NCBI GenBank assembly: GCA_964352775.1
Contig: CAYGTK010000001.1
Location: 14,240-78,239 of the forward strand
Origin: an uncultured Chitinophagaceae bacterium
GTDB lineage: Bacteria; Bacteroidota; Bacteroidia; Chitinophagales; CAIOSU01
Direction of reading: 5' to 3'
Length of the DNA stretch: 64,000 nucleotides
The notes under the pieces: model-generated
The model's input: only the letters and a program-made list of their open reading frames with translations
Databases searched by the model: none
What the model was told of the DNA's origin: nothing
Made by a program: the position numbers and the translations under genes
Shown here: positions 26,425 to 55,269 of the stretch, piece by piece
How the letters are laid out: each line of letters begins with the position of its first letter
How positions within the stretch are numbered: position 1 is the first letter of the stretch

Positions 26425-27570
26425 ATGAAACAATTGCTAATTGCATTCATCGCTTCCCTTTTCCTACTGCTCGTAAGTTGCGGAGGAAATGACGATAGTT
26501 TGGAAGGAAAAAAGGCTCAGCTATCAAAGCTAAAAGCAGAAGCTGGAGAAATAGAATCTCAAATTCTACAATTAGAGAATGAGCTACAGAAGTTAGACCC
26601 TAGTTTAGCAGAAGGCCCTAAAGGTAAATTGATAAGCACCTTACCAATAGAGCAAGGTACATTTGCCCACTACTTTGAGGTACAGGGTAATGCCGAATCT
26701 CAAGAAAACATTAGCGTATCCACTGATATGGGGGGGCTTATTACCAAGGTTTATGTAACCGAAGGCCAAAAAGTAAGTGCAGGACAAACCCTAGTACAGT
26801 TAGATAATAGCGTACTACTCAATAACATCGAAGAACTAAAAACCTCTTTAGGTTTAGCAGAGATCGTTTTCCAAAAGCAAGAGAAGTTGTGGGACCAGAA
26901 TATTGGGTCGGAGATACAATTTCTACAGGCTAAGAATAATAAGGAAACACTTGAACGTAAGCTTCAAACCACCTACTCTCAATTAGAAAAGATGCAAGTT
27001 AAGGCACCTATAAGTGGTACTGTAGATGAGGTATTTGCCAAGCTTGGCGAAATGGCTTCTCCAGGAAGAGCGGTGGTAAGAGTGGTGAAACTAGGCGTTC
27101 TGAAAATTGAGGCTGCAGTACCTGAAAACTATATAGGCACCATCAATAAAGGCGATAAAGTAAATGTGAATTTCCCTGCAATAGGGCTTACTCGCGAAGG
27201 TACTGTTAAGGCTGTAGGGCAAGTGGTTAATACCATTAACAGAACTTTTACCGTCATCTTAAATATTGACAATAAGGACGAGGCTATTAAGCCAAACCTA
27301 CTGGCAGAAGTACTAGTTGAAGATTATACGGTAGAGAAAGCTGTAATAATACCTACTCGCCTTATCCAAACTACTCGTAATACCGACTATGTGTTCATCG
27401 TTGCTAAAAATGCTGAAGGCGAGGCTGTGGCCAAGAAGAAAGTGATACAAAAGGGAAAGTCTTACGAAGGCAAAACGGAGATTTTGGAAGGGCTTTTAGC
27501 CAGTGAGGTGATAATAGACGGTGGTTACCGCGATGTAACCGATGGAGACTTAGTAAGAATGGCTAAGTAA
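26425..27570 (+). CDS. efflux RND transporter periplasmic adaptor (MFP) subunit
   Basis: Lipobox LLLVSCGG from ATG 26425, a coiled-coil hairpin, and HlyD-like barrel segments (APISGTVDEV). Confidence 0.85.
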   Translation: MKQLLIAFIASLFLLLVSCGGNDDSLEGKKAQLSKLKAEAGEIESQILQLENELQKLDPSLAEGPKGKLISTLPIEQGTFAHYFEVQGNAESQENISVSTDMGGLITKVYVTEGQKVSAGQTLVQLDNSVLLNNIEELKTSLGLAEIVFQKQEKLWDQNIGSEIQFLQAKNNKETLERKLQTTYSQLEKMQVKAPISGTVDEVFAKLGEMASPGRAVVRVVKLGVLKIEAAVPENYIGTINKGDKVNVNFPAIGLTREGTVKAVGQVVNTINRTFTVILNIDNKDEAIKPNLLAEVLVEDYTVEKAVIIPTRLIQTTRNTDYVFIVAKNAEGEAVAKKKVIQKGKSYEGKTEILEGLLASEVIIDGGYRDVTDGDLVRMAK

Positions 27571-27600
27571 GCATTAGATAATTGGAGAGAGAGAACGACC

Positions 27601-30600
27601 ATGAACAAAGAGACTCAGAATAAAGAGAACATCACTAGAGAGTTCGGATTATCGACCATGTCGGTTGATAACCGTACCAGTGTGTTGGTGCTTATTTTCA
27701 TCATCATCATCTTGGGTGCTGGTGCATATGGCACTATGCCTAAGGAGAATTTCCCCGAAATAACAATACCTACCATTTACGTAGGTACGCCATACCCTGG
27801 TAACTCACCAGTAGATATTGAGAACTTGATCACCCGTCCGTTAGAGAAGGAGATCAAATCGATAACAGGGGTTAAAAAGTTAAAATCCACTTCTATTCAA
27901 GACTACTCCACCATTGTGGTAGAGTTCAACTTTGATGTAGATGTGCAAGAGGCCTTGCTTGATGTAAAAGATGCAGTAGATAAGGCGAATAGCGAACTTC
28001 CTAATGACCTAGATCAAGACCCCAAGGTGTTTGAGATGGATTTTAGCGAGATACCAGTAATGAACATCAACATTTCAGGAGACGACTTTTCTCCAGAAGA
28101 CTTGAAGTTCTACGCTGAGTATTTGGAAGAGGAGATAGAAGACCTGACCGAAATATCAGAAGTAGACCTAAAAGGGGCGAAAGATAAAGAGGTGAAAATT
28201 CATGTAGACCGCCATAAGATGGAAAGCATGCAGATATCTTTCGGAAATATAGAGGACGCGATAAACTACGAGAACAAGACCATTTCTGGTGGCGACATTC
28301 TTACCGACGAATTCCGTAGAAGTATTCGTGTAGTAGGAGAGTTCGTGAATGTGGACGAGATAAAGAACGTGATCGTTAAGAGTCGCGATGGTAATGCTGT
28401 TTTTCTAGGAGACATTGCCGATGTTAGCTTTGATTACGAAGAAGCGTCTAGTTATTCCCGAAGCAGTGGCTTTGATGTGGTAACGCTAAACATCAAAAAG
28501 AAATCAGGAGAGAACTTACTGAACGCTACTGATAAAATAAAAATAATTGTAGCTGATGCAATAGAGAAGAAGCTACCTAAGAACCTTAAAGTAGAAATAA
28601 CCAACGACACCTCACGGATGACCCGTATTCAAGTAGAGAACTTGGAGAACAGCATCTACTCTGGGGTTATATTGGTGGTGCTGGTATTGCTATTCTTTTT
28701 AGGGTTACGTAATGCCTTGTTCGTTGGTATAGCCATACCAATGTCTATGCTATTAGGCTTCGTGATATTAAATGCCATGGGCATCACCCTGAACATTATG
28801 GTGCTCTTCTCCTTAGTGCTAGCGCTGGGTATGTTGGTGGACAATGGAATTGTGGTGGTAGAGAACATCTACCGTCAAATGCAAGAGGGAAAGAACAGCA
28901 TTCAAGCAGCAAAAGAAGGTGTAGGTGAAGTTGCATGGCCTATTATTTCTTCAACTGCAACTACTTTGGCAGCCTTCTTCCCACTAATATTCTGGGATGA
29001 TATTATGGGGGAGTTCATGAAGTACTTACCTATCACACTCATAATAGTATTATCATCCTCCTTGTTCGTGGCGCTGGTAATGAATCCTGTGCTCACCTCC
29101 ATACTAATGAAGGTGCAAGAAACTAACATGGAAGAGACCCGAACGGCTAAGTCTAAAAAGCAGCGCCGTCGCTTCTTGTTGATCGCATTAGCGGCTATAG
29201 TTGTAGGCATGTTAGTACACACTTACAAGTGGGTAGCAGTTCCTGGAGATGATGACTTGACCATAATGGGTAACCTTATACTTTTTGTGGCCTTGCTTGG
29301 CTTGCTCAACGTATATGTACTTACCCCACTATCCATCCGCTTCCAGAATGTGTTCCTACCAAGGTTAGAAAACTTCTACTATAAGATCATAAATTTCGCA
29401 TTACATGGCTGGGGACCTACCATCTTTATGGTAAGTACGGTATTGATGATGATATTCTCGACCCTGTTCTATTTTGGAAGCGACCCTAAGGTGGTAACCT
29501 TTCCAGCAAACATCCCGAATTACGTTAACGTATTCGCTGAAATGCCTACAGGTACTGATATTGAGCGGACGAATGAGATAACTAAGGAAATAGAAGCCAA
29601 GGTATTTGCCTATGTAGATTCATTCCGAGAAATGGGGATGGTAGAATCGGTAGTGACTAATATTGGTGAAGGAACTTCCGACCCACAATCAGGACAAGTA
29701 CAGCAGGGTAAATCGCCTAACAAAGCAAAAGTTACAGCTGCATTTGTAGAGTTTCAGAACCGACCAGAGGATTACGGTAATACGACCTTCATGCTAGATG
29801 GTCTACGAAAAGTATTAAGCGATATACCTGGCGTTAAGATAACTGTAGATAAAGACCCCAATGGTCCACCAGTAGGCCCGCCAATTAGTGTGGAAGTAGC
29901 TGGGGAAGACTATGACAAGTTGATAGCCCTGAGCGAGAAGGTGAAGAAATACATTAACGATGCCGATATACCTGGTATTGAAGAGTTAAAGACCGATCTT
30001 GATATCGGTAAGCCTGAATTATTGGTAACAGTAAATAGAAAAGCAGCGCGTAGGTATGGATTAAGCACTGCACAAATAGCCTCTACCATTCGTACCGCCT
30101 TGTTCGGTAAAGAAGTGTCTAAGTATAAAGAGGGTGAGGATGATTATCCTATCATGCTTCGCTTGCAAGATAAGTACCGCTACAACTTAGAGAGCCTAAT
30201 GGGGCAGCGCATCACCTATCGGAATCAAGACAACGGTAAAATAGTACAGATACCAATTTCAGCAGTGGCTGATGTGGAATATACTTCTACCTACGGTGCG
30301 GTAAATCGTAAGGATTCAGAACGGGTGATCACTATCTATTCCAATGTGCTTGATGGGTATACGCCTGCTAAAATAATAGAGCAACTGGGCGAACTTTTTG
30401 CCACCTACGAACTACCTGATGGTTATGCTATTAGATATACTGGTGAAGTAGAAGAGCAACAAAAATCAATGGCCTTCTTGAGTAAGGCATTCATGATAGC
30501 TGTATTGCTCATTTTCTTGATCATCATTACGCAGTTCAACTCACTTACTGCACCTATCATCATCTTGTTATCAGTAGCCTTTAGTACTACTGGGGTATTC

Positions 30601-31116
30601 TTAGGTCTAGGTATTTTCCAAATGGAATTCTCGGTTATCATGACCGGTATTGGTATTATTTCCCTAGCGGGAATTGTGGTTAACAATGCCATCGTATTGA
30701 TAGATTACACCAACCTAGTACGCGATAGAAGACGGAAAGAATTAGGTGTAAAAGGCCGCTTGAATCGTGAAGAAATAGTGCGTTGCATTATGGAAGCAGG
30801 TAAAACACGTTTGCGCCCAGTATTGCTTACCGCCATAACAACAGTGCTTGGTTTAATACCGTTGGCCGTAGGATTTAACATCAACTTTTACTCCCTATTC
30901 CGTCGTTTCGACCCTGAGATATTCATCGGTGGAGATAACGTAGTGTTCTGGGGGCCAATGTCGTGGACAGTAATATTCGGATTAACATTCGCTACTTTCC
31001 TTACACTGGTAGTAGTACCAGTAATGTACTTGCTTTTTGATAGAGCAGGATACAAAGTAAGTAGCCTATTAGGTAATAACGAAGAAGAAAAAACTAGTCC
31101 ATCTCCTACTGTGTAG
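27601..31116 (+). CDS. efflux RND transporter permease (AcrB/AcrD/AcrF family)
   Basis: 1171 aa with the duplicated 6-TM plus large-periplasmic-loop architecture. Conserved TM4 region GMLVDNGIVVVENI and TM10 region GIVVNNAIVLIDY. Confidence 0.9.
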   Translation: MNKETQNKENITREFGLSTMSVDNRTSVLVLIFIIIILGAGAYGTMPKENFPEITIPTIYVGTPYPGNSPVDIENLITRPLEKEIKSITGVKKLKSTSIQDYSTIVVEFNFDVDVQEALLDVKDAVDKANSELPNDLDQDPKVFEMDFSEIPVMNINISGDDFSPEDLKFYAEYLEEEIEDLTEISEVDLKGAKDKEVKIHVDRHKMESMQISFGNIEDAINYENKTISGGDILTDEFRRSIRVVGEFVNVDEIKNVIVKSRDGNAVFLGDIADVSFDYEEASSYSRSSGFDVVTLNIKKKSGENLLNATDKIKIIVADAIEKKLPKNLKVEITNDTSRMTRIQVENLENSIYSGVILVVLVLLFFLGLRNALFVGIAIPMSMLLGFVILNAMGITLNIMVLFSLVLALGMLVDNGIVVVENIYRQMQEGKNSIQAAKEGVGEVAWPIISSTATTLAAFFPLIFWDDIMGEFMKYLPITLIIVLSSSLFVALVMNPVLTSILMKVQETNMEETRTAKSKKQRRRFLLIALAAIVVGMLVHTYKWVAVPGDDDLTIMGNLILFVALLGLLNVYVLTPLSIRFQNVFLPRLENFYYKIINFALHGWGPTIFMVSTVLMMIFSTLFYFGSDPKVVTFPANIPNYVNVFAEMPTGTDIERTNEITKEIEAKVFAYVDSFREMGMVESVVTNIGEGTSDPQSGQVQQGKSPNKAKVTAAFVEFQNRPEDYGNTTFMLDGLRKVLSDIPGVKITVDKDPNGPPVGPPISVEVAGEDYDKLIALSEKVKKYINDADIPGIEELKTDLDIGKPELLVTVNRKAARRYGLSTAQIASTIRTALFGKEVSKYKEGEDDYPIMLRLQDKYRYNLESLMGQRITYRNQDNGKIVQIPISAVADVEYTSTYGAVNRKDSERVITIYSNVLDGYTPAKIIEQLGELFATYELPDGYAIRYTGEVEEQQKSMAFLSKAFMIAVLLIFLIIITQFNSLTAPIIILLSVAFSTTGVFLGLGIFQMEFSVIMTGIGIISLAGIVVNNAIVLIDYTNLVRDRRRKELGVKGRLNREEIVRCIMEAGKTRLRPVLLTAITTVLGLIPLAVGFNINFYSLFRRFDPEIFIGGDNVVFWGPMSWTVIFGLTFATFLTLVVVPVMYLLFDRAGYKVSSLLGNNEEEKTSPSPTV

Positions 31117-37673: not shown

Positions 37674-37812
37674 CTGACCAATAGTGTCACGATAATGTCA
37701 ACAGTTTGGCCTAAAAGCTAGGTATACAGAGCTTTGTCAGCTGGCTGTCACTCCTCTAGTAATGGGTTTTCTTTCTTCGTTTTCACAAACAAGAACGAAA
37801 ACCTATTTTACT

Positions 37813-40800
37813 ATGAGACATTTTTCACAACTACTCTTTTCACTTCTAGTCTGCTGCCCACTATGGGTGATGGCACAAGTAGACGGGGGCACCGTAGCTA
37901 CTGAAGCTGGCGAAACCACCGTTTATACTTGCCCAGGAGATATGATGGCTGACCTTATCAGCTTTGACAGTACTACTACATCAACAGCTAACTACGCCTA
38001 TGTAGTAACCGACGACAACAACATTATCCTAGGTTTACCCCCGGGTGACATGGTCGATTTCGAAGGTGCCGGCGTTGGTAATTGCCGCCTTTGGGGATTG
38101 AGTTACACGGGTAATATCACTGCCATGATGGGTGACGATGCAGCAGCGGTGAACCTTTCAGATGGCATGTTCCAATTATCTTCAAACTGGGTTACCGTAG
38201 TGCGCGACACACCTGTTACCACAACAGTAGCTACTGCAGCAGGAGAAACAAGAATATATACCTGCCCAGGTGACGGCATGCCCGATCTAATAAGTTTTGA
38301 TAGCACAAGCACATCAAATGCCAACTTCCAATACGTAATTACCGATGATAACAATATCATACTAGGACTACCTCCGGGCGATATGGCTGATTTTGAAGGC
38401 GCTGGAGTAGGTAATTGCCGTGTATGGGGGTTAAGCTACACGGGAAACATTACCGCTATGATGGGTGACGATGCAGCAGCGGTTACTTTAACTGATGGCT
38501 GTTTCCAGCTGTCTTCTAATTGGGTAACTGTGGTGCGCGATGTACCTGTAGTTACTACTGTAGCTACTGAAACGGGTGCTACTATGATATATACTTGTCC
38601 AGGTGATGGTATTCCTGACTTAATGAGCTTTGATAGCGTAAGCACTTCAAACGCTAACTTTCAATATGTAGTAACCGATGATAACAATATTATCCTTGGA
38701 CTACCTCCAGGCGATATGGTTGATTTTGAAGGTGCTGGCACAGGTAACTGCCGCGTATGGGGATTAAGCTACACGGGTAATATCACCGCTATGATGGGTG
38801 ACGATGCTGCTGCTGTAACATTAACAGATGGTTGCTTTGAGTTGTCTTCTAACTTTGTAACTGTAATTCGCGATGTGCCTGTTTCAGGTATGGTTAGCAC
38901 CGAAAGTGGAGAAACTACAGTTTACACTTGCCCAGGCGATGGTAATCCTGATATTATCAGCTTTGATAGTACTAATGCTACCAACTCGCTTTTCCAATAT
39001 GTAATTACTGATGATAACAATATCATTCTAGGACTTCCTCCTGGCGATATGGCTGATTTTGAAGGTGCTGGTGTAGGTAACTGCCGTGTATGGGGATTGA
39101 GCTATACCGGAAACATTACAGCCATGATGGGCGACGATGCTGCCGCAGTTATGTTAACGGACGGTTGCTTTGAGCTATCTTCTAACTGGATAACCGTAGT
39201 TCGCGATGTGCCTGCTACAACAACCGTTTCCTCACAATCGGGTGCAACTACTATTTACACCTGCCCAGGAGACGGAATGCCTGACTTGATGAGATTTGAT
39301 AGCGTAAGTACTTCTAATTCTAACTTCCAGTACGTGGTGACTGATGACAATAACATCATCCTTGGTCTGCCTCCAGGCGACATGGTCGATTTTGAAGGTG
39401 CTGGTGTAGGTAATTGCCGCGTATGGGGATTGAGCTATACAGGTAACATCACCGCAATGATGGGTGACGATGCAGCAGCAGTTACGTTAACAGATGGTTG
39501 CTTTGAGTTATCTTCTAATTGGGTTACTGTTGTGCGCGATGTGCCTGTGGTTACTACTGTGGCTACGCAAATGGGCGCAACTATGGTATACACTTGCCCA
39601 GGTGATGGTATTCCAGATCTAATGCGTTTTGATAGCGTAAGTACTTCTAACGCTAACTTCCAGTATGTAGTTACTGATGATAACAACATCATACTAGGTT
39701 TACCTCCGGGCGACATGGTTGATTTTGATGGAGCAGGTGTAGGTAATTGCCGTGTATGGGGATTGAGCTATACGGGTAACATCACTGCTATGATGGGTGA
39801 CGACGCTGCAGCAGTTACTTTAACAGATGGTTGCTTCGAGTTGTCTTCCAACTTTGTAACTATTTTTCGCGACGTGCCTACTTCAGGTACTGTAAGTGCT
39901 GAAAGCGGGGCTACTACAATTTACACTTGTCCTGGTGATGGCAATCCTGACTTAATGCGTTTTGATAGCACGAACAACACCAACTCGCTTTTCCAATATG
40001 TAGTAACAGACGATAACAACATCATTCTAGGACTTCCTCCAGGTGATATGGTTGACTTTGAAGGTGCAGGTTTCGGAAATTGTCGCGTATGGGGATTAAG
40101 CTACACGGGTAGCATCACTGCAATGATGGGTGACGATGCAGCAGCTGTTACTTTAACGGATGGTTGTTTCGAATTGTCTTCCAACTTTGTAACAGTAGTG
40201 CGCGACACTCCAGTAGTTACTACGGTAGCTATTGCAGGTGGTGCAACAGAAATAGATGTATGTCCAAGTGATGGCATTGCTGACGAAGTAGAATTTGAAA
40301 GCGTAAGCACTTCTATGGCTGCCTTCCAATATGTAGTGACGGATGAGAATAACATTATCCTAGGTCTTCCTCCAGGCAATATCGTTGATTTTGAAGGAGC
40401 TGGTAATGGTATCTGCCGTGTATGGGGATTGAGCTACACAGGCAACATTATCGCTTCAGCAGGAGATGACGCTGCGACCGTTAATTTAACGGATGGTTGC
40501 TTCAAATTGTCTTCTAACTTCGTAACCGTAAATCGCGATAGCGCGGGTGCAGCATGTGCTACTTCGGTACGTAATATTGAAGACAACTTCTCGCTACGTT
40601 TATACCCTAACCCAGTAAGTTCTAACTTGAACATCGACTTCCGCAGTGCGGATAGCGAGCCTGTACAAGTTCGTGTAATGAACATTACTGGTGCAGTAGT
40701 TAGCACTCAAGTGTTGCAGGGTGGGCAAGGAAACCGCAGTGTTTCGTTAACCGTAAATGATTACCCAAGCGGTATTTATATAGTGAATTTATTAAGCGGC

Positions 40801-40836
40801 AATAGTTTCAGTCAAGCGAAATTCTTGGTGCCTTAA
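37813..40836 (+). CDS. T9SS-sorted surface/secreted protein with eight tandem 111-aa repeats
   Basis: Signal peptide (..PLWVMAQ) from ATG 37813. Eight units carry YTCPGDG...YVVTDDNNIILGLPPGD..DFEGAG.GNCRVWGLSYTGN...DGCFELSSN. The C-terminal approx 90 aa look like a type A Por/T9SS sorting domain (LRLYPNPVSS...GIYIVNL...AKFLV). Confidence 0.85.
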   Translation: MRHFSQLLFSLLVCCPLWVMAQVDGGTVATEAGETTVYTCPGDMMADLISFDSTTTSTANYAYVVTDDNNIILGLPPGDMVDFEGAGVGNCRLWGLSYTGNITAMMGDDAAAVNLSDGMFQLSSNWVTVVRDTPVTTTVATAAGETRIYTCPGDGMPDLISFDSTSTSNANFQYVITDDNNIILGLPPGDMADFEGAGVGNCRVWGLSYTGNITAMMGDDAAAVTLTDGCFQLSSNWVTVVRDVPVVTTVATETGATMIYTCPGDGIPDLMSFDSVSTSNANFQYVVTDDNNIILGLPPGDMVDFEGAGTGNCRVWGLSYTGNITAMMGDDAAAVTLTDGCFELSSNFVTVIRDVPVSGMVSTESGETTVYTCPGDGNPDIISFDSTNATNSLFQYVITDDNNIILGLPPGDMADFEGAGVGNCRVWGLSYTGNITAMMGDDAAAVMLTDGCFELSSNWITVVRDVPATTTVSSQSGATTIYTCPGDGMPDLMRFDSVSTSNSNFQYVVTDDNNIILGLPPGDMVDFEGAGVGNCRVWGLSYTGNITAMMGDDAAAVTLTDGCFELSSNWVTVVRDVPVVTTVATQMGATMVYTCPGDGIPDLMRFDSVSTSNANFQYVVTDDNNIILGLPPGDMVDFDGAGVGNCRVWGLSYTGNITAMMGDDAAAVTLTDGCFELSSNFVTIFRDVPTSGTVSAESGATTIYTCPGDGNPDLMRFDSTNNTNSLFQYVVTDDNNIILGLPPGDMVDFEGAGFGNCRVWGLSYTGSITAMMGDDAAAVTLTDGCFELSSNFVTVVRDTPVVTTVAIAGGATEIDVCPSDGIADEVEFESVSTSMAAFQYVVTDENNIILGLPPGNIVDFEGAGNGICRVWGLSYTGNIIASAGDDAATVNLTDGCFKLSSNFVTVNRDSAGAACATSVRNIEDNFSLRLYPNPVSSNLNIDFRSADSEPVQVRVMNITGAVVSTQVLQGGQGNRSVSLTVNDYPSGIYIVNLLSGNSFSQAKFLVP
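37891..40554 (+). repeat. coding tandem repeat array, 8 x 333 bp
   Basis: The Tyr codon of the YTC motif (Asp codon at the equivalent position in unit 8) recurs at 37924, 38257, 38590, 38923, 39256, 39589, 39922 and 40255, an exact 333-nt period. Confidence 0.9.
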
Positions 40837-40860
40837 TTTTAAGATAAGGTTTAGTATTTG

Positions 40861-40893
40861 GCCCTGTGTTGTATTCAGCACAGGGCTTTTTTT
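40861..40893 (+). terminator. rho-independent terminator
   Basis: Stem GCCCTGTG (40861-40868) pairs with CACAGGGC (40879-40886), followed by TTTTTTT. Confidence 0.75.
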
Positions 40894-40942
40894 GTCCCTA
40901 AGCAACAAACCGCTATTTTCAGGGCGCAACAAAAAAACAGAG

Positions 40943-41710
40943 ATGGCAATTCAAGATAAGTTCAGTCTATCGGGCAAAGTGGCTGTGATAACAGGAGCAA
41001 GTAAGGGTATTGGTGAAAGTATGGCCCGAGCCTTTGGCGAGGCAGGCGCAAAAGTCGTGATCAGTAGCAGAAAACAAGAAGCTCTAGACGTAGTAGCTGC
41101 TTCGTTCAAAGAGGCTGGAATTGATGTGTTGGCTGTAGCTGCCAATGTGGGCAATATGAAGGACAATAAGCGACTGGTTGAAGCCACGCTAGACCACTTT
41201 GGTGGTATAGATATTTTGGTGAATAATGCAGCGGCTAACCCTGTATTCGGACCCGCTTTACAAACGGAAGAATGGGCTTTTGATAAGATCATGAACGTGA
41301 ACGTGAAAGGCCCATTTGAGTTGGCGAAAAAGTGCTACCCATCCATGAAAGAACGTGGCGGAGGCTCTATCATCAATATCAGTAGTGTGGGTGGTATTCG
41401 TCCTGAATTTGGCTTGGGAATATATAGCGTAAGTAAGGCTTCCTTAATATCACTTACCAAGGTATTGGCAAAAGAATGGGGAGTAGATAAAATACGTGCC
41501 AACGTAATCTGTCCAGGCTTGATTAAAACCAAATTCAGCGAAGCATTGTGGAAGAACGACGATATATCTGATATGGTCATGCAACACCTATCAATTAAAG
41601 AATTTGGCGAACCAGAGGATATTGCTGCTTTAGCATTATACCTTGCCGCCGATGCTGGCCGATACGCCACAGGCGGTGTGTTTACTAGCGATGCTGGACT
41701 GACTATCTAA
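40943..41710 (+). CDS. SDR family oxidoreductase
   Basis: TGASKGIG cofactor motif, NNAA, and catalytic YSVSK (YxxxK). ATG 40943 is preferred because the longer ORF would overlap the terminator. Confidence 0.85.
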   Translation: MAIQDKFSLSGKVAVITGASKGIGESMARAFGEAGAKVVISSRKQEALDVVAASFKEAGIDVLAVAANVGNMKDNKRLVEATLDHFGGIDILVNNAAANPVFGPALQTEEWAFDKIMNVNVKGPFELAKKCYPSMKERGGGSIINISSVGGIRPEFGLGIYSVSKASLISLTKVLAKEWGVDKIRANVICPGLIKTKFSEALWKNDDISDMVMQHLSIKEFGEPEDIAALALYLAADAGRYATGGVFTSDAGLTI

Positions 41711-41744
41711 ACCTTCTTTTTTAAAGAACCCCAAAGAAAACGAT

Positions 41745-42959
41745 ATGGTAGAACTATTTGCTACAGAGAAGCTGAAAGGCATTTACCCTAAAATAGAAGC
41801 CCTGTTAGAGAAGGAGATATATCCGAATGAGCAGCGTTTCATGAATCAACCTTTTAAGCAGACAGAGCAGGAACTAAAAGCCGTTCGCGAGAAGGTTAAA
41901 GAAATGGGATTATGGAATATAGCCCTCTCAGAACACCATGGAGGTGTGGGATTGACTTTGATGGAATTCGCCCAATTAAGCGAACTGTTGGGCCGCACAC
42001 CAGTTGGGCACTACCTGTTTAATTGCCAAGCACCTGATATAGGGAATATCGAATTAATGAGCGCCTTTGCTTCCGATGAGTTGAAGACGAAATACTTACA
42101 ACCACTTTTGGATGGTGACATCCGAAGCTGTTTCAGCATGACCGAACCAGCTTTGGCGGGAAGTAACCCTATCCTGATGCATACCAATGCTGTAAAGGAT
42201 GGAAATGACTATGTGATAAACGGTAGAAAGTGGTTCACCACCGCCGCCGATGGTGCTGATTTTGCCATTGTAATGGCGGTAACCAACCCCGATGCTGGCA
42301 CCTACCAAAAGGCGAGTATGATAGTGGTGTCAACTGATAATCCTGGCTTTAGGTTGCTACGCAACATTCCAATTATGGGCGAGCCTGGGGAAGGCTATTT
42401 GAGCCATGCGGAGATAGATTATGTGGATTGCCGTGTACCCGAAAGCAATATTATTGGTGGAGAAGGAATGGGCTTTGCCTTAGCACAAGAACGCTTAGGG
42501 CCTGGACGAATACATCATTGTATGCGCTGGATAGGAATCTGTGAACGTGCTTTTGAAATGATGTGTAAACGTGCAGCAGAACGCGACTTAGGCGGCGGTA
42601 AAAAACTAGGTCATCAACAAACCATCCAGAATTGGATCGCTGAAAGCAGAGCTGAAATTGATGCAGCACGTTTAATGGTACTACATACTGCTCATGGAAT
42701 GGAGCAGCACGGCGCAAAAGCCGTTCGTAATCAAATAAGCACTATCAAGTTTATGGTGGCCAATACCTTGCAGAAGGTTCTAGATAGAGCCATTCAAACC
42801 CATGGCGCCTTGGGTATTACCGACGACCTGTTGTTATCTTTCTGGTTCCGCCACGAAAGAGGAGCTAGGATCTATGATGGACCAGATGAAGTACATAAGT
42901 CAGTACTGGCCCGTTCTATTTTGAAGCAATATGGTTTGGATAGTAAAAGAAGTAAATGA
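41745..42959 (+). CDS. acyl-CoA dehydrogenase family protein (ACAD10/ACAD11-like)
   Basis: ACAD fold with CFSMTEP, and with ERLGPGRIHHCMRWIG and DGPDEVH segments that I recognise from the ACAD10/11 subgroup. Confidence 0.88.
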   Translation: MVELFATEKLKGIYPKIEALLEKEIYPNEQRFMNQPFKQTEQELKAVREKVKEMGLWNIALSEHHGGVGLTLMEFAQLSELLGRTPVGHYLFNCQAPDIGNIELMSAFASDELKTKYLQPLLDGDIRSCFSMTEPALAGSNPILMHTNAVKDGNDYVINGRKWFTTAADGADFAIVMAVTNPDAGTYQKASMIVVSTDNPGFRLLRNIPIMGEPGEGYLSHAEIDYVDCRVPESNIIGGEGMGFALAQERLGPGRIHHCMRWIGICERAFEMMCKRAAERDLGGGKKLGHQQTIQNWIAESRAEIDAARLMVLHTAHGMEQHGAKAVRNQISTIKFMVANTLQKVLDRAIQTHGALGITDDLLLSFWFRHERGARIYDGPDEVHKSVLARSILKQYGLDSKRSK

Positions 42960-43015
42960 TCTAGATATATATAGCAACGGACATCCGGAAATGCGATGAA
43001 CTGGAGTAATCTAAA

Positions 43016-44023
43016 GTGGTCAGTTTCCTAGAAGACCAATTGGATGATGCACCAAAGGAGATAGAGGTAAAGCAATTCCCCAGCGGGTTTTCTAACCTTA
43101 CTTATCTAATAACGGCTGGTGAAAAAGAATACGTTTTACGTCGTCCTCCATTTGGTGCCAACATTAAGTCGGCACACGACATGGGCAGGGAGTTCAAGGT
43201 GTTGAGCCTATTGAAACCGCACTTTGATAAAGTACCTGCTCCAACTCTTTATTGCGAAGATGACGAAGTGCTTGGCGCACCTTTCTACATGATGGAACGA
43301 GTGAAGGGATTGATTCTTCGAAATAGCGTTCCTGATGGAGTAGATCTAAGTGAAGCGAAAGTTAATGCGCTTTCAAAAAGAAAAGTAGAGCAATTGGCTC
43401 AATTGCATAGTCTCGATCTAGAGACTACTGGATTAAAAGATTTCGGTAAACCAGAGGGGTACATCCAACGTCAAGTAGAAGGATGGATAAAACGCTATTA
43501 CAATGCCGAAACGGACACCATTGAAGGAATGAATGCTTTAGCAGAATGGATGCCCAAAAATATGCCCGATAGCGCAGAAGCGGCTTTCATTCACAACGAT
43601 TACAAGTACGATAACTTGGTTCTTAACCCAGAAACCTTAGAAATTGAGGCTATACTAGATTGGGAAATGGCAACTGTTGGTCATCCTTTAATGGACTTGG
43701 GTACTACTCTAGGCTACTGGGCGGAAGCAAAAGATTCCGATATGCTTAAGCCTTTTAACTTGACCTGGTTACCTGGTAATTTAGATCGCCAGCAGGTGGT
43801 AGACCATTATAGCAAGCAAGTGAACAAAGAGCTAAAGGATATTCTATTCTACTACGTGTTCGGTCTATTCAAAATAGGAGTGATAGGGCAGCAGATATAT
43901 GCCCGTTTCAAAAAAGGCTTAACAAAAGACCCTCGTTTCGGGTTCTTGATATATATCGTTAAAGAGGCCTCCAAAAATGGAATGAAAGCCTTAGATAAAG
44001 ACCGTATAAGTAACCTTAACTAG
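43016..44023 (+). CDS. phosphotransferase (APH/choline-kinase-like) family protein
   Basis: Kinase motifs HNDYKYDNL (HxDxxxxN) and LDWEMATVGHPLMDLG. The N-terminal region resembles the ACAD10/11 kinase domain. GTG start, with an in-frame TAA 9 nt upstream. Confidence 0.85.
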   Translation: MVSFLEDQLDDAPKEIEVKQFPSGFSNLTYLITAGEKEYVLRRPPFGANIKSAHDMGREFKVLSLLKPHFDKVPAPTLYCEDDEVLGAPFYMMERVKGLILRNSVPDGVDLSEAKVNALSKRKVEQLAQLHSLDLETTGLKDFGKPEGYIQRQVEGWIKRYYNAETDTIEGMNALAEWMPKNMPDSAEAAFIHNDYKYDNLVLNPETLEIEAILDWEMATVGHPLMDLGTTLGYWAEAKDSDMLKPFNLTWLPGNLDRQQVVDHYSKQVNKELKDILFYYVFGLFKIGVIGQQIYARFKKGLTKDPRFGFLIYIVKEASKNGMKALDKDRISNLN

Positions 44024-44027
44024 TACC

Positions 44028-44921
44028 ATGCTGAAATTTGAAGACCTAAAGAACATCACTATTCTTGGAGCTGGAACACTCGGCTTACGAGTCGGGCTGC
44101 AGTCAGCCGTAAGCGGCTACAATGTAGTGATATTTGATATTAAGGAAGAAGCGCTTGAAAAGGCGAAAGTGATCCACCAGAAAATCCTGAACCACTTGGT
44201 GCGCCATGGGAGAATACTAGCCGACGAGATACCACAAATAGTAAACAGGATCACGTGGACCACAAGCGCGGAAGAAGCAGCTAAAGATGCCGACCTGATA
44301 AACGAATCTGTAATAGAAGAGGCGGACATCAAGAACAAGGTATGGGAGCAATTCGGGAAACTATGCCCTGAAAAAACCATTTTTACTACTAATACTAGCT
44401 ACATGCTACCCAGCATGTTCGCTGCCATTAGTGGCCGCCCAGAGCAGTTCTGCGCTTATCACTTTCACGATGTGTTTACGGCTAATGTTGTAGACATTAT
44501 GCCACATCCTGGCACTTCGCAAGAGGTGATCGATCTATTGATGGAACTTGGAACAAAGTTAGAGCAAGTGCCTGTGTTCGTTAAGCGTGAGAACCCTGGT
44601 TATATTTTCAATCAGATGCTAATGGCAGTGCTAGGTGCTGCTGGTGCATTGGTTACATATGATGTAGCCAGCATTCACGATGTGGACCGTAGTTGGATGG
44701 GTAACTTCAAAATGCCAATCGGTCCATTTGGTATAATGGATGAAATAGGCTTGGATACCGCTTGGCATGTAGTTCATGTTCGCAAAGATGAACGAAGCGT
44801 AAAATTCGCGGAGCTACTTAAAAGCTATCTAGATGCAGGCAAATTAGGAATGAAATCTGGCGAAGGGTTTTATACCTACCCTAAGCCAGCCTATGCACAA
44901 CCTGATTTTTTGATGGGTTAG
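44028..44921 (+). CDS. 3-hydroxyacyl-CoA dehydrogenase family protein
   Basis: N-terminal Rossmann ILGAGTLGLRVG, the 3HCDH_N/3HCDH_C layout, and a terminal GEGFYTYP. Confidence 0.8.
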   Translation: MLKFEDLKNITILGAGTLGLRVGLQSAVSGYNVVIFDIKEEALEKAKVIHQKILNHLVRHGRILADEIPQIVNRITWTTSAEEAAKDADLINESVIEEADIKNKVWEQFGKLCPEKTIFTTNTSYMLPSMFAAISGRPEQFCAYHFHDVFTANVVDIMPHPGTSQEVIDLLMELGTKLEQVPVFVKRENPGYIFNQMLMAVLGAAGALVTYDVASIHDVDRSWMGNFKMPIGPFGIMDEIGLDTAWHVVHVRKDERSVKFAELLKSYLDAGKLGMKSGEGFYTYPKPAYAQPDFLMG

Positions 44922-44924
44922 AAT

Positions 44925-45335
44925 TTACCCTTTCAATCTACCAGCTATGAGCCCGCCCACATAGGCAGAGGGTAGATAAATCAGGATGTCTGTGATGCCC
45001 ATCCATAATGGAGGGTGAATGATAAAAAACAATCCTATTCCCACCAGCGTAAAAATTGCTCCAATTATAATAGCAGGTCTTATGCTTGTACCCTTATTAA
45101 TTAAAACTGCTGTTGCAGCACCAAGCATTACGCCAAGTAAGTGACCAAAAATAACCCAGACAAGTGCGCCAGCGGGCTGGGCATCATGGTATGCCCTCAT
45201 TTCTTCAGCGGTGGCGTCCATGCTCGGAAATTCTCCTACAATCGGAAAAATATTGTGACCAACTTCCTCCATGATGCCCACTAGTGTGCCTGCTATGAGC
45301 ATGCCGGCTATCACGGCTAAAATTGTACGTAACAT
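44925..45335 (-). CDS. hypothetical membrane protein (approx 4 TM)
   Basis: Hydrophobic helices only, with no recognised family. Lies 43 nt downstream of uvrA on the same strand. Confidence 0.5.
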   Translation of the reverse strand: MLRTILAVIAGMLIAGTLVGIMEEVGHNIFPIVGEFPSMDATAEEMRAYHDAQPAGALVWVIFGHLLGVMLGAATAVLINKGTSIRPAIIIGAIFTLVGIGLFFIIHPPLWMGITDILIYLPSAYVGGLIAGRLKG

Positions 45336-45378
45336 GATTTAAAGGTTGATGAACTATGAATTTACAAAAATCTGATGA

Positions 45379-48243
45379 TCAGACCTTTGCCGCCATTGTT
45401 TCCAATTCCTTCTTCAAGAATTTACCTGTGTGGCTCTCTTTGCACTCTGCCACTTTCTCTGGTGTGCCAGTAACTACAATGTTACCCCCTCGATTACCAC
45501 CTTCCGGACCAAGGTCGACAATGTAGTCGGCCACTTTTATCACATCCATGTTATGCTCGATGATAAGAACCGTGTTGCCCTTATCTACTAGTAATTGTAG
45601 AACACCTAGGAGTACTCTTATATCCTCAAAATGTAGACCTGTGGTAGGTTCGTCTAGAATGTAAAAGGTGCTGCCCGTATCTTTTTTACTTAGTTCGCTA
45701 GCAAGCTTTACCCGTTGCGCCTCGCCACCTGATAATGTGGGTGATGATTGTCCCAAGCGGATATAACCCAAACCTACATCCTGCAAGGTTTTCACTTTGC
45801 GATAGATGTTAGGGATGGCTTCAAAAAAAGCAACTGCCTCGTCAACAGCCATATCCAGCACATCGCTGATGGTTTTTCCTTTAAAGCGCACTTCCAAGGT
45901 CTCCCGATTATAGCGGTGACCCATACAACTAGGACATTCCACATATACGTCGGGCAAGAAATTCATCTCAATGGTTTTCACCCCTGCACCTTGGCATTCT
46001 TCGCAGCGGCCTCCCTTTACATTGAAAGAAAAACGTCCTGGTTTGTAACCACGGATCTTCGCCTCTGGCATATTAGCGAACAGACTTCTGATATCGCTAA
46101 ACACGCTGATATAAGTAGCAGGGTTGGAACGCGGCGTTCGCCCAATAGGTGATTGATCTATTTCAATTACCTTATCGATATGCTCTAGGCCGTCAAACGT
46201 TTTATAAGGCATCGGCTTTTGACGAGAACGATACAAATGCTGACGCAAAATTGGATACAAGGTATTATTGATCAAAGTAGATTTTCCACTACCAGATACA
46301 CCTGTTACTAGTGTCATCGTACCCAGCGGTATTTCTATGCTTACGTCTTTCAGGTTATTCCCTGTTGCGCCTGTAAGTTTTAGGCTTTTCCCGTTCCCTT
46401 CTCTTCGTTCTTCAGGTAGAGCAATACGCTCTTCTCCTGATAGATACTTAGCGGTTAGGGTAGGTATTTTTAGAAACTTCTCAGGAGTTCCCTCTCCTAC
46501 TATCTCACCACCTAAACGACCTGCGCCTGGCCCAATATCAATGATATAGTCGCTGGCTAGCATAATGTCTTTATCATGCTCTACTACCAATACAGTATTA
46601 CCTACATCAGCCAATTCCCGAAGGGATTCTATCAGTCGCTGATTATCGCGCTCATGCAGTCCGATGCTTGGCTCATCCAAAATATAGGTGATACCCTGAA
46701 GTTTACTCCCTATCTGTGTAGCCAATCGAATTCGTTGTGACTCTCCACCTGATAAGGTTCTGGTAGGTCGATTGAGCGATAAATAATCCAAACCGACATC
46801 CAATAGGAACTGAACCCTAGCCCGTATTTCCTTCAAAATATCACGCCCAATAGCTCTTTGGCGATCGGATAAGCGGTCTTCCACACCATCAAACCAATTG
46901 TATAGGTCAGATAGGTTCATCTGCGCTAGCTCGGCGATATTATATTCTGCTACTTTAAAGTAAAGTGATTCTCTTTTTAGTCGAGCACCATTACAGGATG
47001 GACAAGTAACAATTGTCATAAACTCTTCTGCCCATCGTCGAATACTGTCAGAAGAAGATTCTTCATAACTGCGACGCACCATATTTATCACTCCTTCAAA
47101 ATCGCTACTGTAGCGACGCTCCATTGCTGTGGTCTTTTTGAAGGTATCTGAGCCATCCTCGTCACCATATAAAATGAGATTGAGTAGGGGTGCAGGTATA
47201 TCTTTTACAGGCATACTTAAGGTGAAATCATGCTTCTTCACCATTTTACGTAGCTCGCGGAACACATAGTTATCGCGCACTTCGCCCAATGGAGCTATAC
47301 CACCTGTGTTGATGCTCAAGTTTTGGTCCGGCAGCACCATTTCCATATCTATGGTAGGCATACTACCCAAACCGTTGCAAGTTGGGCAGGCACCATAAGG
47401 TGAGTTGAAAGAGAAACTATTTGGTGATGGATCTTCATAAGACAAGCCCGATTCCGGGTCCATCAACAACTTACTGAACATGCTCACCTCGCCCGTTTCA
47501 TGGTCTTGAAGCATCAACAGACCGTTACCCATTTCCATGGCCTGTTGGAGTGATTTGTTCAAGCGATCTTCAAAAGCTTCTGTCACTTCCAAGCGATCAA
47601 TAACCGCCTCAATATCGTGGATCTTGTAGCGATCTACCTGCATTTTTGGTGCTATATCTTCTATCTCTCCATCTATCCGCACTTTTAAAAACCCTTGCTT
47701 ACGGATCTTTTCAAATAACTCACGATAGTGCCCTTTTCGTCCACGAACCAAAGGAGCAAGAACGATTATTTTCTTTCCTTCAAAATTGGTCTTGATATGA
47801 TCAAGTATCTGCTTCTCATCGTAGCGCACCATCTTTTTCCCACTCGTGTAGGAGTATGCCTCACCCATTCGGGCGAATAGCAAGCGAAGGAAATCGTATA
47901 CCTCAGTAATAGTTCCTACGGTAGATCTTGGGTTCTTGTTGGTAGTCTTCTGCTCAATGGAAATAACTGGACTTAAGCCTGTTATCTTGTCCACCTCGGG
48001 GCGTTCTAAACCGCCCAAAAACTGGCGGGCATAGGCTGAAAAACTTTCGATGTACCGGCGCTGTCCCTCTGCATAAATAGTATCAAAGGCCAAGGATGAT
48101 TTTCCGCTTCCGCTGATACCCGTAATAACCACGAATTTGTTCCGTGGTATGCTTACATCTACGTTCTTGAGATTGTGCTCACGAGCCCCATAAATATGGA
48201 GATATTCTATCTCAATATCACTTATAGCAGGCAGGTCACTCAT
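45379..48243 (-). CDS. uvrA: excinuclease ABC subunit UvrA
   Basis: Two ABC modules ([20 protein letters not shown]), signature [16 protein letters not shown], and CxxC zinc modules. ATG 48243 is preferred, supported by the adjacent -7 box. Confidence 0.95.
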
Positions 48244-53374: not shown

Positions 53375-54421
53375 ATGAAGAACCCCTCACCAAAAGAAAT
53401 AGCGCTCATATCATCTGGGGTCCTCACGGGTTTTTTATTTGTTAGCTTGTTACTAGCATGGAAACTCGCTATACTAAATACCTCTTGGTATGTTGTGCTC
53501 GGCTTTGTTGTAGTTGTTTTTGGTCTATCCTATTGGATGTTCAGTTACTTTTTGCGACAATTCATTTACCGTAAAATCAAGCTGATATACAAGCACATAC
53601 ACGACCTTAAGGCTCCCAAGGGTGCTAAACCCTTACAAATAGACCTTGGAGAAGACATTATTACCGATGTTGAGCAAGAGGTGTACGATTGGGCAACTGA
53701 TAAAACTCAAGAGATAGAAACCCTCCGTAACATGGAGACCTACCGAAAGGAGTTTCTTGGCAACGTTTCGCATGAATTAAAAACTCCCATTTTCAACGCG
53801 CAAGGTTACTTACATACCTTGATAGATGGTGGCTTGAAAGATGAACGCATAAATAAAAGCTACCTGTATAAAGCTTCAAAGAATCTCGATCGCCTAAATC
53901 ATATTGTAGAAGACTTGGAGGTTATTGCTAAGTATGAATCGAATACGCTGCACTTAGACATCACCAAATTCAACATCACTGAATTAATAGAAGAGGTAAT
54001 AGAGAGCTTGGAGATGCAGGCTGACCTCAAAGACATCAAGCTAGCCTTAAAACCTAACACTAATAAAGCGGTATCTGTGCTAGCCGATAGAGAGCGTATT
54101 CGTCAGGTTTTGGTTAACCTAACCACGAATTCCATTAAGTATGGTAATGATTCTGGCAAAACCACCTATGGCATATTCGATATGGACCAAAACATCCTTA
54201 TTGAGGTAACCGATACAGGGTTGGGTATTGAGCAAGAGCACTTGCCTAGACTATTTGAGCGGTTTTATCGAGTTGATAAAAGTCGAGCTAGAGAAATGGG
54301 AGGAACAGGATTAGGATTAGCTATTGTTAAGCATATTGTGGAAGCCCATCACCAAACCATTAATGTTAGAAGTACCGTTGGCCTTGGTTCCACCTTCGGC
54401 TTCACAATAAAGAAGGCTTAG
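53375..54421 (+). CDS. sensor histidine kinase
   Basis: Two N-terminal TM helices, HisKA H-box NVSHELKTP, and HATPase boxes (NSIKYG, DTGLGI, GGTGLGLAIV). Confidence 0.85.
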   Translation: MKNPSPKEIALISSGVLTGFLFVSLLLAWKLAILNTSWYVVLGFVVVVFGLSYWMFSYFLRQFIYRKIKLIYKHIHDLKAPKGAKPLQIDLGEDIITDVEQEVYDWATDKTQEIETLRNMETYRKEFLGNVSHELKTPIFNAQGYLHTLIDGGLKDERINKSYLYKASKNLDRLNHIVEDLEVIAKYESNTLHLDITKFNITELIEEVIESLEMQADLKDIKLALKPNTNKAVSVLADRERIRQVLVNLTTNSIKYGNDSGKTTYGIFDMDQNILIEVTDTGLGIEQEHLPRLFERFYRVDKSRAREMGGTGLGLAIVKHIVEAHHQTINVRSTVGLGSTFGFTIKKA

Positions 54422-55269
54422 TTGTAAGTGTAAAAACCCTTACCTGATTTACGGCCGTGATGCCCGGCTTCAACTTTTTGCTGCTGTATTCTGCTTGGGC
54501 GAAACTTAGCATTTTGATGAAAAGAATCAAACATAGATGTAGTTACTGAAAAGTTAGTGTCTACCCCTATCAGATCCATTAACTGGAAAGGGCCCATTTT
54601 AAAGCCGCTGGCTTGCATCAAGTCATCAATATCTTCGTGTGAGGCTACTCGCTCTTCTAATACTTTTAGTCCTTCTACATAAAAATGTCTGGCTACTCGG
54701 TTAACAATAAAACCAGGGCTATCCTTTGCAATTACAGGGCTGCGCTTCATTTCTTTGGCTAGTTGATATACGGCATCTACCACTTCACTACTCGTTTCCA
54801 CGCCAGCAATAACTTCTACTAAGCGCATAATATGCGCTGGATTAAAAAAGTGCATGCCCACCACTCTTTCTGGGTTAGGTATCGGCGCAGCAATTCTTGT
54901 TATTGGAATGGAAGATGTGTTGGTGGCTAGAATAGTATCAGGGCCGTTTATCTCAGCTAGTTTATGAAAAAGTTCGTGCTTAACATCTAATCGTTCTACT
55001 ACCGCCTCAATAATAATATCGGCTTTAAGCGAATTGATAGAAGTGGTGAATTCTATATTTTGAAGGGCATTATCTCTTTCTACCTCCGTTACCTTGCCAC
55101 GAGCAATTCCTTTGTCTAGATTACTAATTATAGAATTCTTGGCTTTGGCCAGTTGTTCTTCGGCAATATCATATAGCAGCGTTCGTTTTCCTGCCATGGC
55201 TGCTAATTGGGTAATTCCGCTACCCATTGTGCCTGCACCTATTACTCCAATGCTGTTTATGCCTTTCAT
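54418..55269 (-). CDS. 3-hydroxybutyryl-CoA / 3-hydroxyacyl-CoA dehydrogenase
   Basis: IGVIGAGTMGSGI Rossmann motif, NTSS, HFFNPA, and GRKSGKGFYTY. Confidence 0.85.
   Translation of the reverse strand: MKGINSIGVIGAGTMGSGITQLAAMAGKRTLLYDIAEEQLAKAKNSIISNLDKGIARGKVTEVERDNALQNIEFTTSINSLKADIIIEAVVERLDVKHELFHKLAEINGPDTILATNTSSIPITRIAAPIPNPERVVGMHFFNPAHIMRLVEVIAGVETSSEVVDAVYQLAKEMKRSPVIAKDSPGFIVNRVARHFYVEGLKVLEERVASHEDIDDLMQASGFKMGPFQLMDLIGVDTNFSVTTSMFDSFHQNAKFRPSRIQQQKVEAGHHGRKSGKGFYTYN

Follow-up and report, generated by a model that had tools for sequence, protein, structure and literature searches.

The 64-kb window analysed here, a stretch of contig CAYGTK010000001.1 from an uncultured Chitinophagaceae bacterium of the phylum Bacteroidota, carries on its plus strand four closely packed genes that are the subject of this report. 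They encode a short-chain dehydrogenase/reductase (SDR; 40943–41710, ATG start, 255 amino acids (aa)), a protein of the acyl-coenzyme A (acyl-CoA) dehydrogenase (ACAD) fold (41745–42959, 404 aa), a kinase of the aminoglycoside phosphotransferase (APH) fold (43016–44023, GTG start, 335 aa) and a 3-hydroxyacyl-CoA dehydrogenase (HADH; 44028–44921, 297 aa). A first-pass annotation of the same sequence had listed four same-strand genes with intergenic gaps of 34, 56 and 4 nt; our check of the open reading frames (ORFs) recovered all four on the plus strand at exactly those coordinates and spacings, and the Pfam domain assignments of the four proteins are far beyond chance. All the defining sequence features that we tested place the ACAD and the kinase in the families of mammalian ACAD10 and ACAD11 and bacterial LvaC, in line with a proposed phospho-elimination chemistry on acyl-CoAs.

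The 5′ boundary of the operon is marked by the intrinsic terminator of the preceding gene, which encodes a 1024-aa protein. The terminator reported in the first-pass annotation is indeed present: a hairpin and a run of seven T residues occupy 40860–40893 (+), with a 12-pair stem (7 G-C) and a 4-nt loop at 40860–40887, and the stem begins 24 nt past the stop codon of the upstream gene. A longer ORF for the SDR, from a TTG at 40892, would overlap the terminator. A putative promoter of the Bacteroidota type (TTTG, 19 nt, TAttTTca; 40891–40921, +) lies 22 nt 5′ of the ATG at 40943, as a weak match to the consensus that was read by eye. A scan for σ70 promoters gave no site upstream of the operon, and the sites that it called were fewer than in shuffled sequence; such an absence is expected in a Bacteroidota host. 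An Rfam scan of positions 40000–46000 returned no match, and hence no riboswitch or leader RNA. On the 3′ side, the convergent gene noted earlier is a minus-strand ORF for a 136-aa membrane protein (44925–45335), which ends 3 nt past the HADH stop codon.

The ACAD-fold enzyme and the kinase

The ACAD contains the Acyl-CoA_dh_N, Acyl-CoA_dh_M and Acyl-CoA_dh_1 domains, all above the Pfam cut-offs (E-values 7e-11 to 2e-35). In a ranking across the whole PDB, the four best matches are Mycobacterium abscessus 4hr3 (275 bits), human ACAD11 2wbi (273 bits) and mouse ACAD11 8v3u and 8v3v (272 and 269 bits), whereas the best classical ACAD reaches 146 bits, about half the score of ACAD11 or 4hr3; identity to the ACAD domain of human ACAD11 is ~40%. 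A neighbour-joining tree groups the window enzyme with ACAD11-type sequences and leaves the classical ACAD of Bosea outside, as the single classical outgroup; blastp against the ORFs that flank the retrieved loci yielded no additional classical ACAD at E<1e-8. Classical FadE-type dehydrogenases had been named in the first-pass annotation as the competing placement for this protein, and the roughly twofold higher bit scores of ACAD11 and 4hr3 as well as the position in the tree both place it elsewhere.

The residues that set this branch apart are present as well. In mouse ACAD11, D753 stands in for the usual Glu base, and R626, H634 and R637, all on one helix, hold the 4-phosphate; substitution of these residues abolishes turnover of 4-phosphoacyl-CoA, and ACAD10 and ACAD11 are inactive on unsubstituted acyl-CoAs (Rashan et al., PMC12440821). 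The corresponding helix of the window ACAD, RLGPGRIHHCMR (aa 250–261; codons at 42492–42527, +), supplies R250, H258 and R261, which align with mouse R626, H634 and R637, and also retains the general ACAD residue R255. D378, the predicted catalytic Asp in place of the classical Glu base, opens the motif DGPDEVH (aa 378–384; codons at 42876–42896, +) and aligns with D753 of the mouse enzyme and D754 of the human one; an Asp is also found here in 2wbi and 4hr3. Both motifs had been picked out in the first-pass annotation, which had proposed aligning the residues that line the phosphate pocket; in our alignment the R/H/R triad and the catalytic Asp are conserved. The classical Bosea ACAD has V/I/V/E at the four positions where all ACAD10/11-type sequences aligned have R/H/R/D, and 65 of 70 homologues carry the motif RLGPGRIHHCMR without change. 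In addition, the segment LFNCQAPDIGNIEL contains FNCQAPDIGN, an instance of the motif FNCxAPDxGN that is common to ACAD10, ACAD11, Pseudomonas putida LvaC and the Burkholderia pseudomallei enzyme and is not found in MCAD, LCAD or VLCAD (Paquay et al., supplement to PMC11342911). Judged by these sequence features, the window ACAD belongs to the ACAD10/ACAD11/LvaC branch, and we propose it as a putative 4-phosphoacyl-CoA phosphate eliminase.

The kinase matches the APH family (PF01636) at 1e-47. Its best match in the PDB is 9o56 (283 bits, 43% identity), followed by the kinase domain of mouse ACAD11 (171–175 bits, 35% identity) and by 3dxp (157 bits), after which the next match reaches just 41 bits. 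Seven residues, namely R42 (β3), E59 (αC), D195, K197 and N200 (within HNDYKYDN, aa 193–200) and D215 and E217 (in the D215-W-E217 motif, aa 215–217), align with R61, E78, D214, K216, N219, D234 and E236 of 9o56. These are the seven residues needed in the “ACAD10 kinase” homologue of Caldalkalibacillus thermarum (2026 preprint, PMC13596139); we infer that 9o56 is that protein because the residue numbers agree exactly with those in the preprint. R152, in the segment YIQRQVEGW, aligns with the Arg of YCKRQV in 8v3v; R176 of mouse ACAD11 contacts the CoA moiety in the ACAD11 model (PMC12440821), and the motif RQVxGW occurs in 47 of 56 kinase orthologues. The intact kinase core claimed in the first-pass annotation thus stands, with HNDYKYDN, DWE and every catalytic residue in place. 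On this reading of its residues the protein is a full-length, stand-alone APH kinase of the ACAD10/11 type with all catalytic residues present, and we propose it as a putative 4-hydroxyacyl-CoA 4-kinase. The suggestion that the ACAD and its neighbour look like the two halves of ACAD10/ACAD11 is borne out by scores and residues alike, which place both proteins there.

The 5′ end of the kinase gene can be drawn in two ways. The GTG at 43016 is the first possible start past an in-frame stop at 43007–43009; however, an ATG at 42996 in another frame opens a candidate true 5′ end (42996–43015, +) that encodes MNWSNLK, a peptide resembling the N-termini of short-form kinase orthologues such as MENFERLKKHLEERL. 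One added A in the A3 run at 43013–43015 would join the two frames, and this run may hold a homopolymer sequencing error, or else the gene may be truly frameshifted and restart at the GTG. The catalytic core is intact whichever start holds.

The kinase type also bears on what else the operon should contain. LvaA, which shares just ~29% identity with the kinase domains of ACAD10/11 (PMC11342911), depends on the 12-kDa protein LvaB, whereas ACAD10, ACAD11 and the separate B. pseudomallei kinase work alone (PMC11342911, PMC6692424). As the window kinase resembles ACAD10/11 in type rather than LvaA, no LvaB-like gene is expected here, and there is no small ORF between or beside the four genes, whose gaps are those given above.

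These data also bear on the most conventional interpretation of the locus, an ordinary β-oxidation cluster in which a FadE-type ACAD and an HADH happen to sit beside an unrelated antibiotic phosphotransferase and a generic SDR. Database names lean that way: homologues of the ACAD are called just “acyl-CoA dehydrogenase” in their source records, plasmid records call the kinases “aminoglycoside phosphotransferase” or “phosphotransferase family protein”, and the window kinase has weak NCBIfam matches to the APH(3′) and thiamine-kinase models, all far under the cut-offs. However, the ACAD lacks the catalytic Glu and has the ACAD10/11-specific pocket; the APH(3′) model scores 22 bits against a cut-off of 205, while the kinase domain of ACAD11 gives 171–175 bits; and the adjacency of kinase and ACAD is kept across phyla. 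We reject an aminoglycoside resistance kinase on the APH(3′) score; the wider reading of classical β-oxidation with antibiotic resistance is contradicted by that score together with the ACAD scores, the tree and the residues, and is very improbable.

The two dehydrogenases

The SDR matches adh_short_C2 at 1e-61 and carries the motifs TGASKGIG (aa 17–24), SSRK (aa 41–44, after β2) and NNAA (aa 94–97), with the catalytic S-Y-K residues in SS (aa 147–148) and YSVSK (aa 161–165). Basic residues after β2 of the Rossmann fold are typical of NADP(H)-dependent enzymes, and an acidic residue there is typical of NAD-dependent ones; the SSRK motif therefore suggests an NADPH-type enzyme with a reductive role. 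Its best solved homologues are the DHRS4 structures 2zat and 3o4r (198 bits), with which it has the NADP-type SSRK and the S-Y-K residues in common, although the margin over the best non-DHRS4 chain (165 bits) is just ~33 bits. DHRS4 is a peroxisomal NADPH-dependent carbonyl reductase whose substrates include retinal, ketosteroids and xenobiotic carbonyls; we know of no established acyl-CoA role for it. Among the NCBIfam models, the SDR scores 276 bits against NF005446 (PRK07035), under the equivalog cut-off of 373 bits, and the single model that it passes is NF005559, for the broad “glucose 1-dehydrogenase” subfamily (258 vs. 215 bits). By analogy with LvaD, this DHRS4-like enzyme probably reduces 4-oxoacyl-CoA to 4-hydroxyacyl-CoA; indirect hints of a kinship with LvaD come from its length, which resembles that of the 255-aa LvaD homologue of Pseudomonas citronellolis (PMC6692424), and from its frequent position next to the ACAD.

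The HADH contains both domains of the family (3HCDH_N, 142 bits, 3e-41; 3HCDH, 76.5 bits, 2e-21) and passes the model NF006143 (PRK08293, 3-hydroxyacyl-CoA dehydrogenase) at 328 bits against a cut-off of 312. Its best PDB match is the Acinetobacter baylyi diketoreductase 4dyd (179 bits). With 4dyd and PRK08293 it has in common the two-domain 3HCDH fold and the catalytic Ser, His and Asn residues (Ser124, His145 and Asn195); it differs from them in the signature HFHD-VF..VVDIMPH, in an Asp in place of Glu, in a one-residue deletion and in its near-constant linkage to the kinase. The signature is invariant in 11 orthologues, and so is the Asp at the position of the canonical Glu (Asp156, in VVDIM), whereas Glu is kept there in 4dyd, in Hbd structures and in a second HADH of the window. 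We think that the operon enzyme probably works as a His-Asp variant of the catalytic dyad. Asp37 follows β2, which suggests an NAD-type enzyme with an oxidative role, and the HADH probably oxidises 3-hydroxyacyl-CoA to 3-oxoacyl-CoA as the exit step of the pathway. The second HADH (54418–55269, −) is a canonical Hbd-type enzyme (3HCDH_N, 212 bits; HFFNP...LVEVI motifs) that is just 31% identical to the operon HADH; its presence elsewhere in the window shows the operon HADH to be a specialised paralogue.

Conservation and surroundings of the operon

A scan with the ACAD, at one genome per species, yielded more than 598 relatives, the best 80 of which share 55–69% identity and come from Bacteroidota, Acidobacteriota, Gemmatimonadota, Chloroflexota, Planctomycetota, Verrucomicrobiota, Myxococcota and other phyla. 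Linkage was counted at the 61 genome loci with enough flanking sequence and, in a second scan anchored on the HADH, with a profile from the 11 orthologues against metagenome contigs. The kinase lies directly 3′ of the ACAD in 49 of the 61 genome loci, in many phyla. On the metagenome contigs, it lies immediately 5′ of the HADH in 64 of the 69 loci that have at least 300 nt upstream, and behind an insertion in two more; given this placement in 64 of 69 loci, the HADH subfamily is dedicated to the module. The SDR is directly 5′ of the ACAD in 27 of 61 genome loci and in 19 of the 33 metagenome loci with enough flank, and the complete order SDR-ACAD-kinase-HADH occurs in 18 genome loci (Cyclobacteriaceae, Algoriphagus, Spirosoma, Ohtaekwangia and others) and in 19 metagenome loci. 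Nine genome loci have the SDR without the HADH and one has the HADH without the SDR. The SDR is thus a frequent yet dispensable member of the module. The ACAD10/11-like phospho-elimination chemistry that had been put forward for the operon in the first-pass annotation gains support from this cross-phylum pairing, together with the placement of the ACAD and the kinase residues.

These counts also bear on a different division of labour between the two dehydrogenases, in which the HADH would oxidise (S)-4-hydroxyacyl-CoA to the 4-oxo compound and the SDR would reduce the latter to the (R)-isomer for the kinase. Given the strong preference of the ACAD10 kinase for (R)-4-hydroxyhexanoyl-CoA (PMC11342911), such a stereo-inversion is chemically attractive, and the HADH has features that suit it: it is divergent and operon-dedicated (HFHD, Asp for Glu) with a canonical Hbd-type paralogue elsewhere in the window; its closest solved relative, the diketoreductase 4dyd, reduces carbonyls beyond C3; and the NAD/NADP split between HADH and SDR fits a redox-driven inversion. 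However, the two genes co-occur imperfectly (HADH without SDR in 14 of 33 loci, SDR without HADH in 9 of 61); the HADH passes the “3-hydroxyacyl-CoA dehydrogenase” cut-off of NF006143; and the 3-hydroxyacyl-CoA that LvaC and ACAD10 release is an ordinary HADH substrate (PMC11342911). We consider an inversion pair unlikely; if it did exist, the bacterial linkage would predict an acyl-CoA function for the peroxisomal DHRS4 alongside ACAD11.

The wider neighbourhoods hold further recurrent genes. A 600-aa FadE-type ACAD with an Acyl-CoA_dh_C domain lies directly 3′ of the HADH and on the same strand in nine metagenome loci (at 6922–8727 of locus L084 and in 8 others), so that in some relatives the operon is extended toward ordinary β-oxidation. 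A divergent gene for an oxidoreductase of the medium-chain dehydrogenase/reductase (MDR) type, similar to zinc-dependent alcohol dehydrogenases or quinone oxidoreductases, recurs beside the module in Bacteroidota, and an MDR-type gene also adjoins it on alphaproteobacterial plasmids (L012, 5647–6621, and 13 other genome loci; L086, 1345–2355, and 10 other metagenome loci; L081, 4561–5547; L082, 2898–3884); the window has no such gene. A TetR regulator also recurs. One may speculate that the MDR-type enzyme handles 2-unsaturated 4-oxygenated substrates as an enoyl or alkenal reductase. On a Bosea plasmid, the genes run ACAD, MDR, PaaI thioesterase, ACAD10/11-like enzyme, SDR, kinase, SDR, FadJ and thiolase, and the first of these SDRs, between the ACAD10/11-like enzyme and the kinase, shares 45% identity with the SDR of the window. 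A Sphingobium plasmid carries an MDR-like oxidoreductase, FadJ, the ACAD, the kinase and an epoxide hydrolase, with a P450 further along. Taken together, the recurrent neighbours (FadE-type ACAD, MDR, TetR, FadJ and thiolase) point to acyl-CoA catabolism.

This context is relevant to the function of the kinase. Its homology to 9o56 could instead mean that it phosphorylates a 1-O-alkylglycerol or a monoacylglycerol, with acyl-CoA as an allosteric activator, and that the operon serves ether- or glycerolipid salvage: 9o56 is the closest solved homologue (283 bits, 43%), its numbering matches that of the enzyme in PMC13596139, and the C. thermarum enzyme and several other prokaryotic homologues are reported to phosphorylate chimyl alcohol, some of them in an acetyl-CoA-dependent manner (PMC13596139). 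According to that preprint, ACAD10 kinase domains, prokaryotic ones included, act on 1-O-alkylglycerols in the presence of CoA compounds. Yet a lipid kinase would leave the linked ACAD, with a pocket and an Asp base that 65 of 70 homologues retain, without a role and would leave the SDR and HADH unexplained; the recurrent neighbours are acyl-CoA enzymes (FadJ, thiolase, FadE-type ACAD); no ether-lipid gene is found among the annotated window ORFs; and a requirement for a CoA compound would be expected anyway if an acyl-CoA were the real substrate. Lipid salvage is an improbable function for this operon.

Two other arrangements were seen among the relatives. In seven non-Cytophagales loci, a His_Phos_1 gene lies near an ACAD10/11-type ACAD (L009, at 2933–3595, L048, L061, L062, L066, L068 and L070), within 1.3 kb in six of them and at 3.7 kb in L048, with no kinase detected nearby in five of the seven; a similar histidine-phosphatase arrangement is known from the P. 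citronellolis lva cluster (PMC6692424). Plasmid p1 of Burkholderia sp. FERM BP-3421 carries an ACAD-kinase pair (L083, 5932–8066) with the same R/H/R/D residues, directly after two non-ribosomal peptide synthetase (NRPS) genes and before genes for an alpha/beta hydrolase and a thioesterase.

The NRPS-linked pair raises the idea that phosphorylation followed by elimination could serve as a biosynthetic dehydration, acting on a hydroxyacyl intermediate, bound to a carrier or to CoA, on the way to a secondary metabolite. The window operon, however, lies among housekeeping genes (UvrD, UvrA, TonB receptor), with no polyketide synthase, NRPS or tailoring genes among the annotated window ORFs, and its conserved partners are enzymes of catabolic type; a biosynthetic role here is hardly credible.

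The genes around the operon are unrelated to it: they encode UvrD, a repeat-rich protein secreted by the type IX secretion system (T9SS), UvrA and a TonB-dependent receptor. The repeat-rich protein is the product of the 1024-aa gene upstream (37762–40836, +); a 333-nt (111-aa) unit without a Pfam match is repeated 7.6 times in tandem, with 76% matches, and the C-terminus is a Por_Secre_tail sorting domain of the T9SS. A Pfam scan of the ~50 larger ORFs (≥120 aa) across the window found no CoA ligase (AMP-binding), crotonase or thiolase, within the cluster or elsewhere among these ORFs; no lactonase is linked to the operon, and no regulator such as LvaR flanks it. The first-pass annotation had likewise found no CoA ligase, LvaB-like protein or hydratase in the cluster, and we agree. 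A link to the TetR gene at 24478–25086 was considered and rejected, as this gene heads an efflux-pump operon 16 kb away; that operon (24478–31116, +), with the TetR regulator, an outer-membrane factor, a membrane-fusion protein and an AcrB-type pump of the resistance-nodulation-division family, is an ordinary efflux operon.

The proposed by-pass and its relatives

Our analysis suggests, with somewhat better than even confidence, that the four-gene operon is a by-pass that returns acyl-CoAs oxygenated at C4 to β-oxidation in four steps, and the kinase-ACAD core is likely to work as proposed. In the first step, the NADPH-type SDR would reduce 4-oxoacyl-CoA to 4-hydroxyacyl-CoA, by analogy with LvaD; in the second, the kinase would use ATP to phosphorylate the 4-hydroxyl group, as its homology to ACAD10/11 and to the B. 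pseudomallei orthologue suggests; in the third, the ACAD would act in a redox-neutral manner with transient use of its FAD, with Asp378 as the base and R250, H258 and R261 holding the phosphate, and elimination of phosphate would yield 2-enoyl-CoA and some 3-hydroxyacyl-CoA, as expected from homology and from residues validated by mutagenesis; and in the fourth, the NAD-type HADH may oxidise 3-hydroxyacyl-CoA to 3-oxoacyl-CoA. Release of some 3-hydroxyacyl-CoA has been reported for both LvaC and ACAD10 (PMC11342911). Hydration of the enoyl-CoA, thiolysis and activation with CoA would be left to housekeeping enzymes.

As no CoA ligase or lactonase is linked to the operon, its substrates are presumably intermediates that are already bound to CoA. 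Likely candidates would be 4-oxo- and 4-hydroxyacyl-CoAs that arise in the β-oxidation of 10-hydroxy or 10-oxo, mid-chain oxygenated or peroxidised fatty acids; levulinate does not appear to be specifically indicated.

Several observations weigh against this scheme. Local genes do not suffice to close the pathway, as the scanned window ORFs include neither a hydratase nor a thiolase nor a CoA ligase. The closest solved relative of the kinase, 9o56, is reported to phosphorylate 1-O-alkylglycerols, with acyl-CoAs as activators only (PMC13596139), and the start codon of the kinase gene is uncertain (GTG at 43016 vs. ATG at 42996). The SDR is generic, under every NCBIfam equivalog cut-off, and is missing from 14 of the 33 HADH-anchored metagenome loci with enough flank. 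The HADH has Asp for the canonical catalytic partner Glu, and the solved structure closest to it is that of a diketoreductase and not of a β-oxidation enzyme.

Compared with mammalian ACAD10 and ACAD11 (2wbi, 8v3u, 8v3v), the window operon contains both catalytic modules and has in common with them the catalytic Asp, the R/H/R phosphate pocket, the HxDxK..N and DWE motifs and the CoA-contacting Arg. The modules are nevertheless split, the ACAD gene preceding the kinase gene, whereas the mammalian proteins are single kinase-ACAD polypeptides; the window has neither the HAD phosphatase domain, a feature of ACAD10, nor an organelle targeting signal, and it adds a co-transcribed SDR and HADH. A split pair is already known from B. 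pseudomallei (kinase Q63VL0, ACAD Q63VL1), which lacks LvaB and in which each protein can stand in for the matching domain of ACAD10 in vitro (PMC11342911). The window pair resembles it in having a separate ACAD10/11-type kinase and ACAD, and the ACAD motifs FNCxAPDxGN and GRLGPG are common to both, a comparison made at the level of motifs.

The lva operon of P. putida comprises LvaR, A, B, C, D and E, and lva homologues have been described from Alpha-, Beta- and Gammaproteobacteria (Rand et al. 2017, as summarised in PMC6692424). The window operon would follow the same chemical logic (SDR, then kinase, then a phosphate-eliminating ACAD-fold enzyme); its SDR adjoins the ACAD, and LvaC motifs are common to both in a motif-level comparison. 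In contrast, it lacks LvaB, the CoA ligase LvaE, the regulator LvaR and a transporter, its kinase is of the ACAD10/11 type, it has a dedicated HADH in addition, and it belongs to another phylum; without LvaB, LvaE and LvaR, it falls outside a strict definition of an lva operon. All seven key residues are conserved relative to the C. thermarum homologue (9o56), the closest solved kinase, although that enzyme reportedly phosphorylates 1-O-alkylglycerols under stimulation by acetyl-CoA and the window kinase is embedded in an operon of acyl-CoA enzymes. We found no description of the four-gene Bacteroidota arrangement, or of the dedicated HADH subfamily, in the literature searched.

The chemistry of ACAD10/11 and of the Lva type is already known, and the novelty of the operon is a modest organisational twist. 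Its compact, separate enzymes could serve biochemical studies and engineered pathways that consume 4-oxo and 4-hydroxy acids, among them levulinate, gamma-lactones and hydroxy fatty acids. The function of ACAD10 and ACAD11 was assigned only in 2024–2025, and a 2026 preprint proposes another substrate for the kinase domain; conserved bacterial operons provide independent evidence in this dispute. As the kinase is locked, across phyla, to a pocket-intact ACAD and to two acyl-CoA-type dehydrogenases, the 4-hydroxyacyl-CoA route is favoured, at least in bacteria, and the pathway would thereby be extended from Proteobacteria to Bacteroidota, in the form of a minimal four-gene module with a dedicated HADH subfamily.

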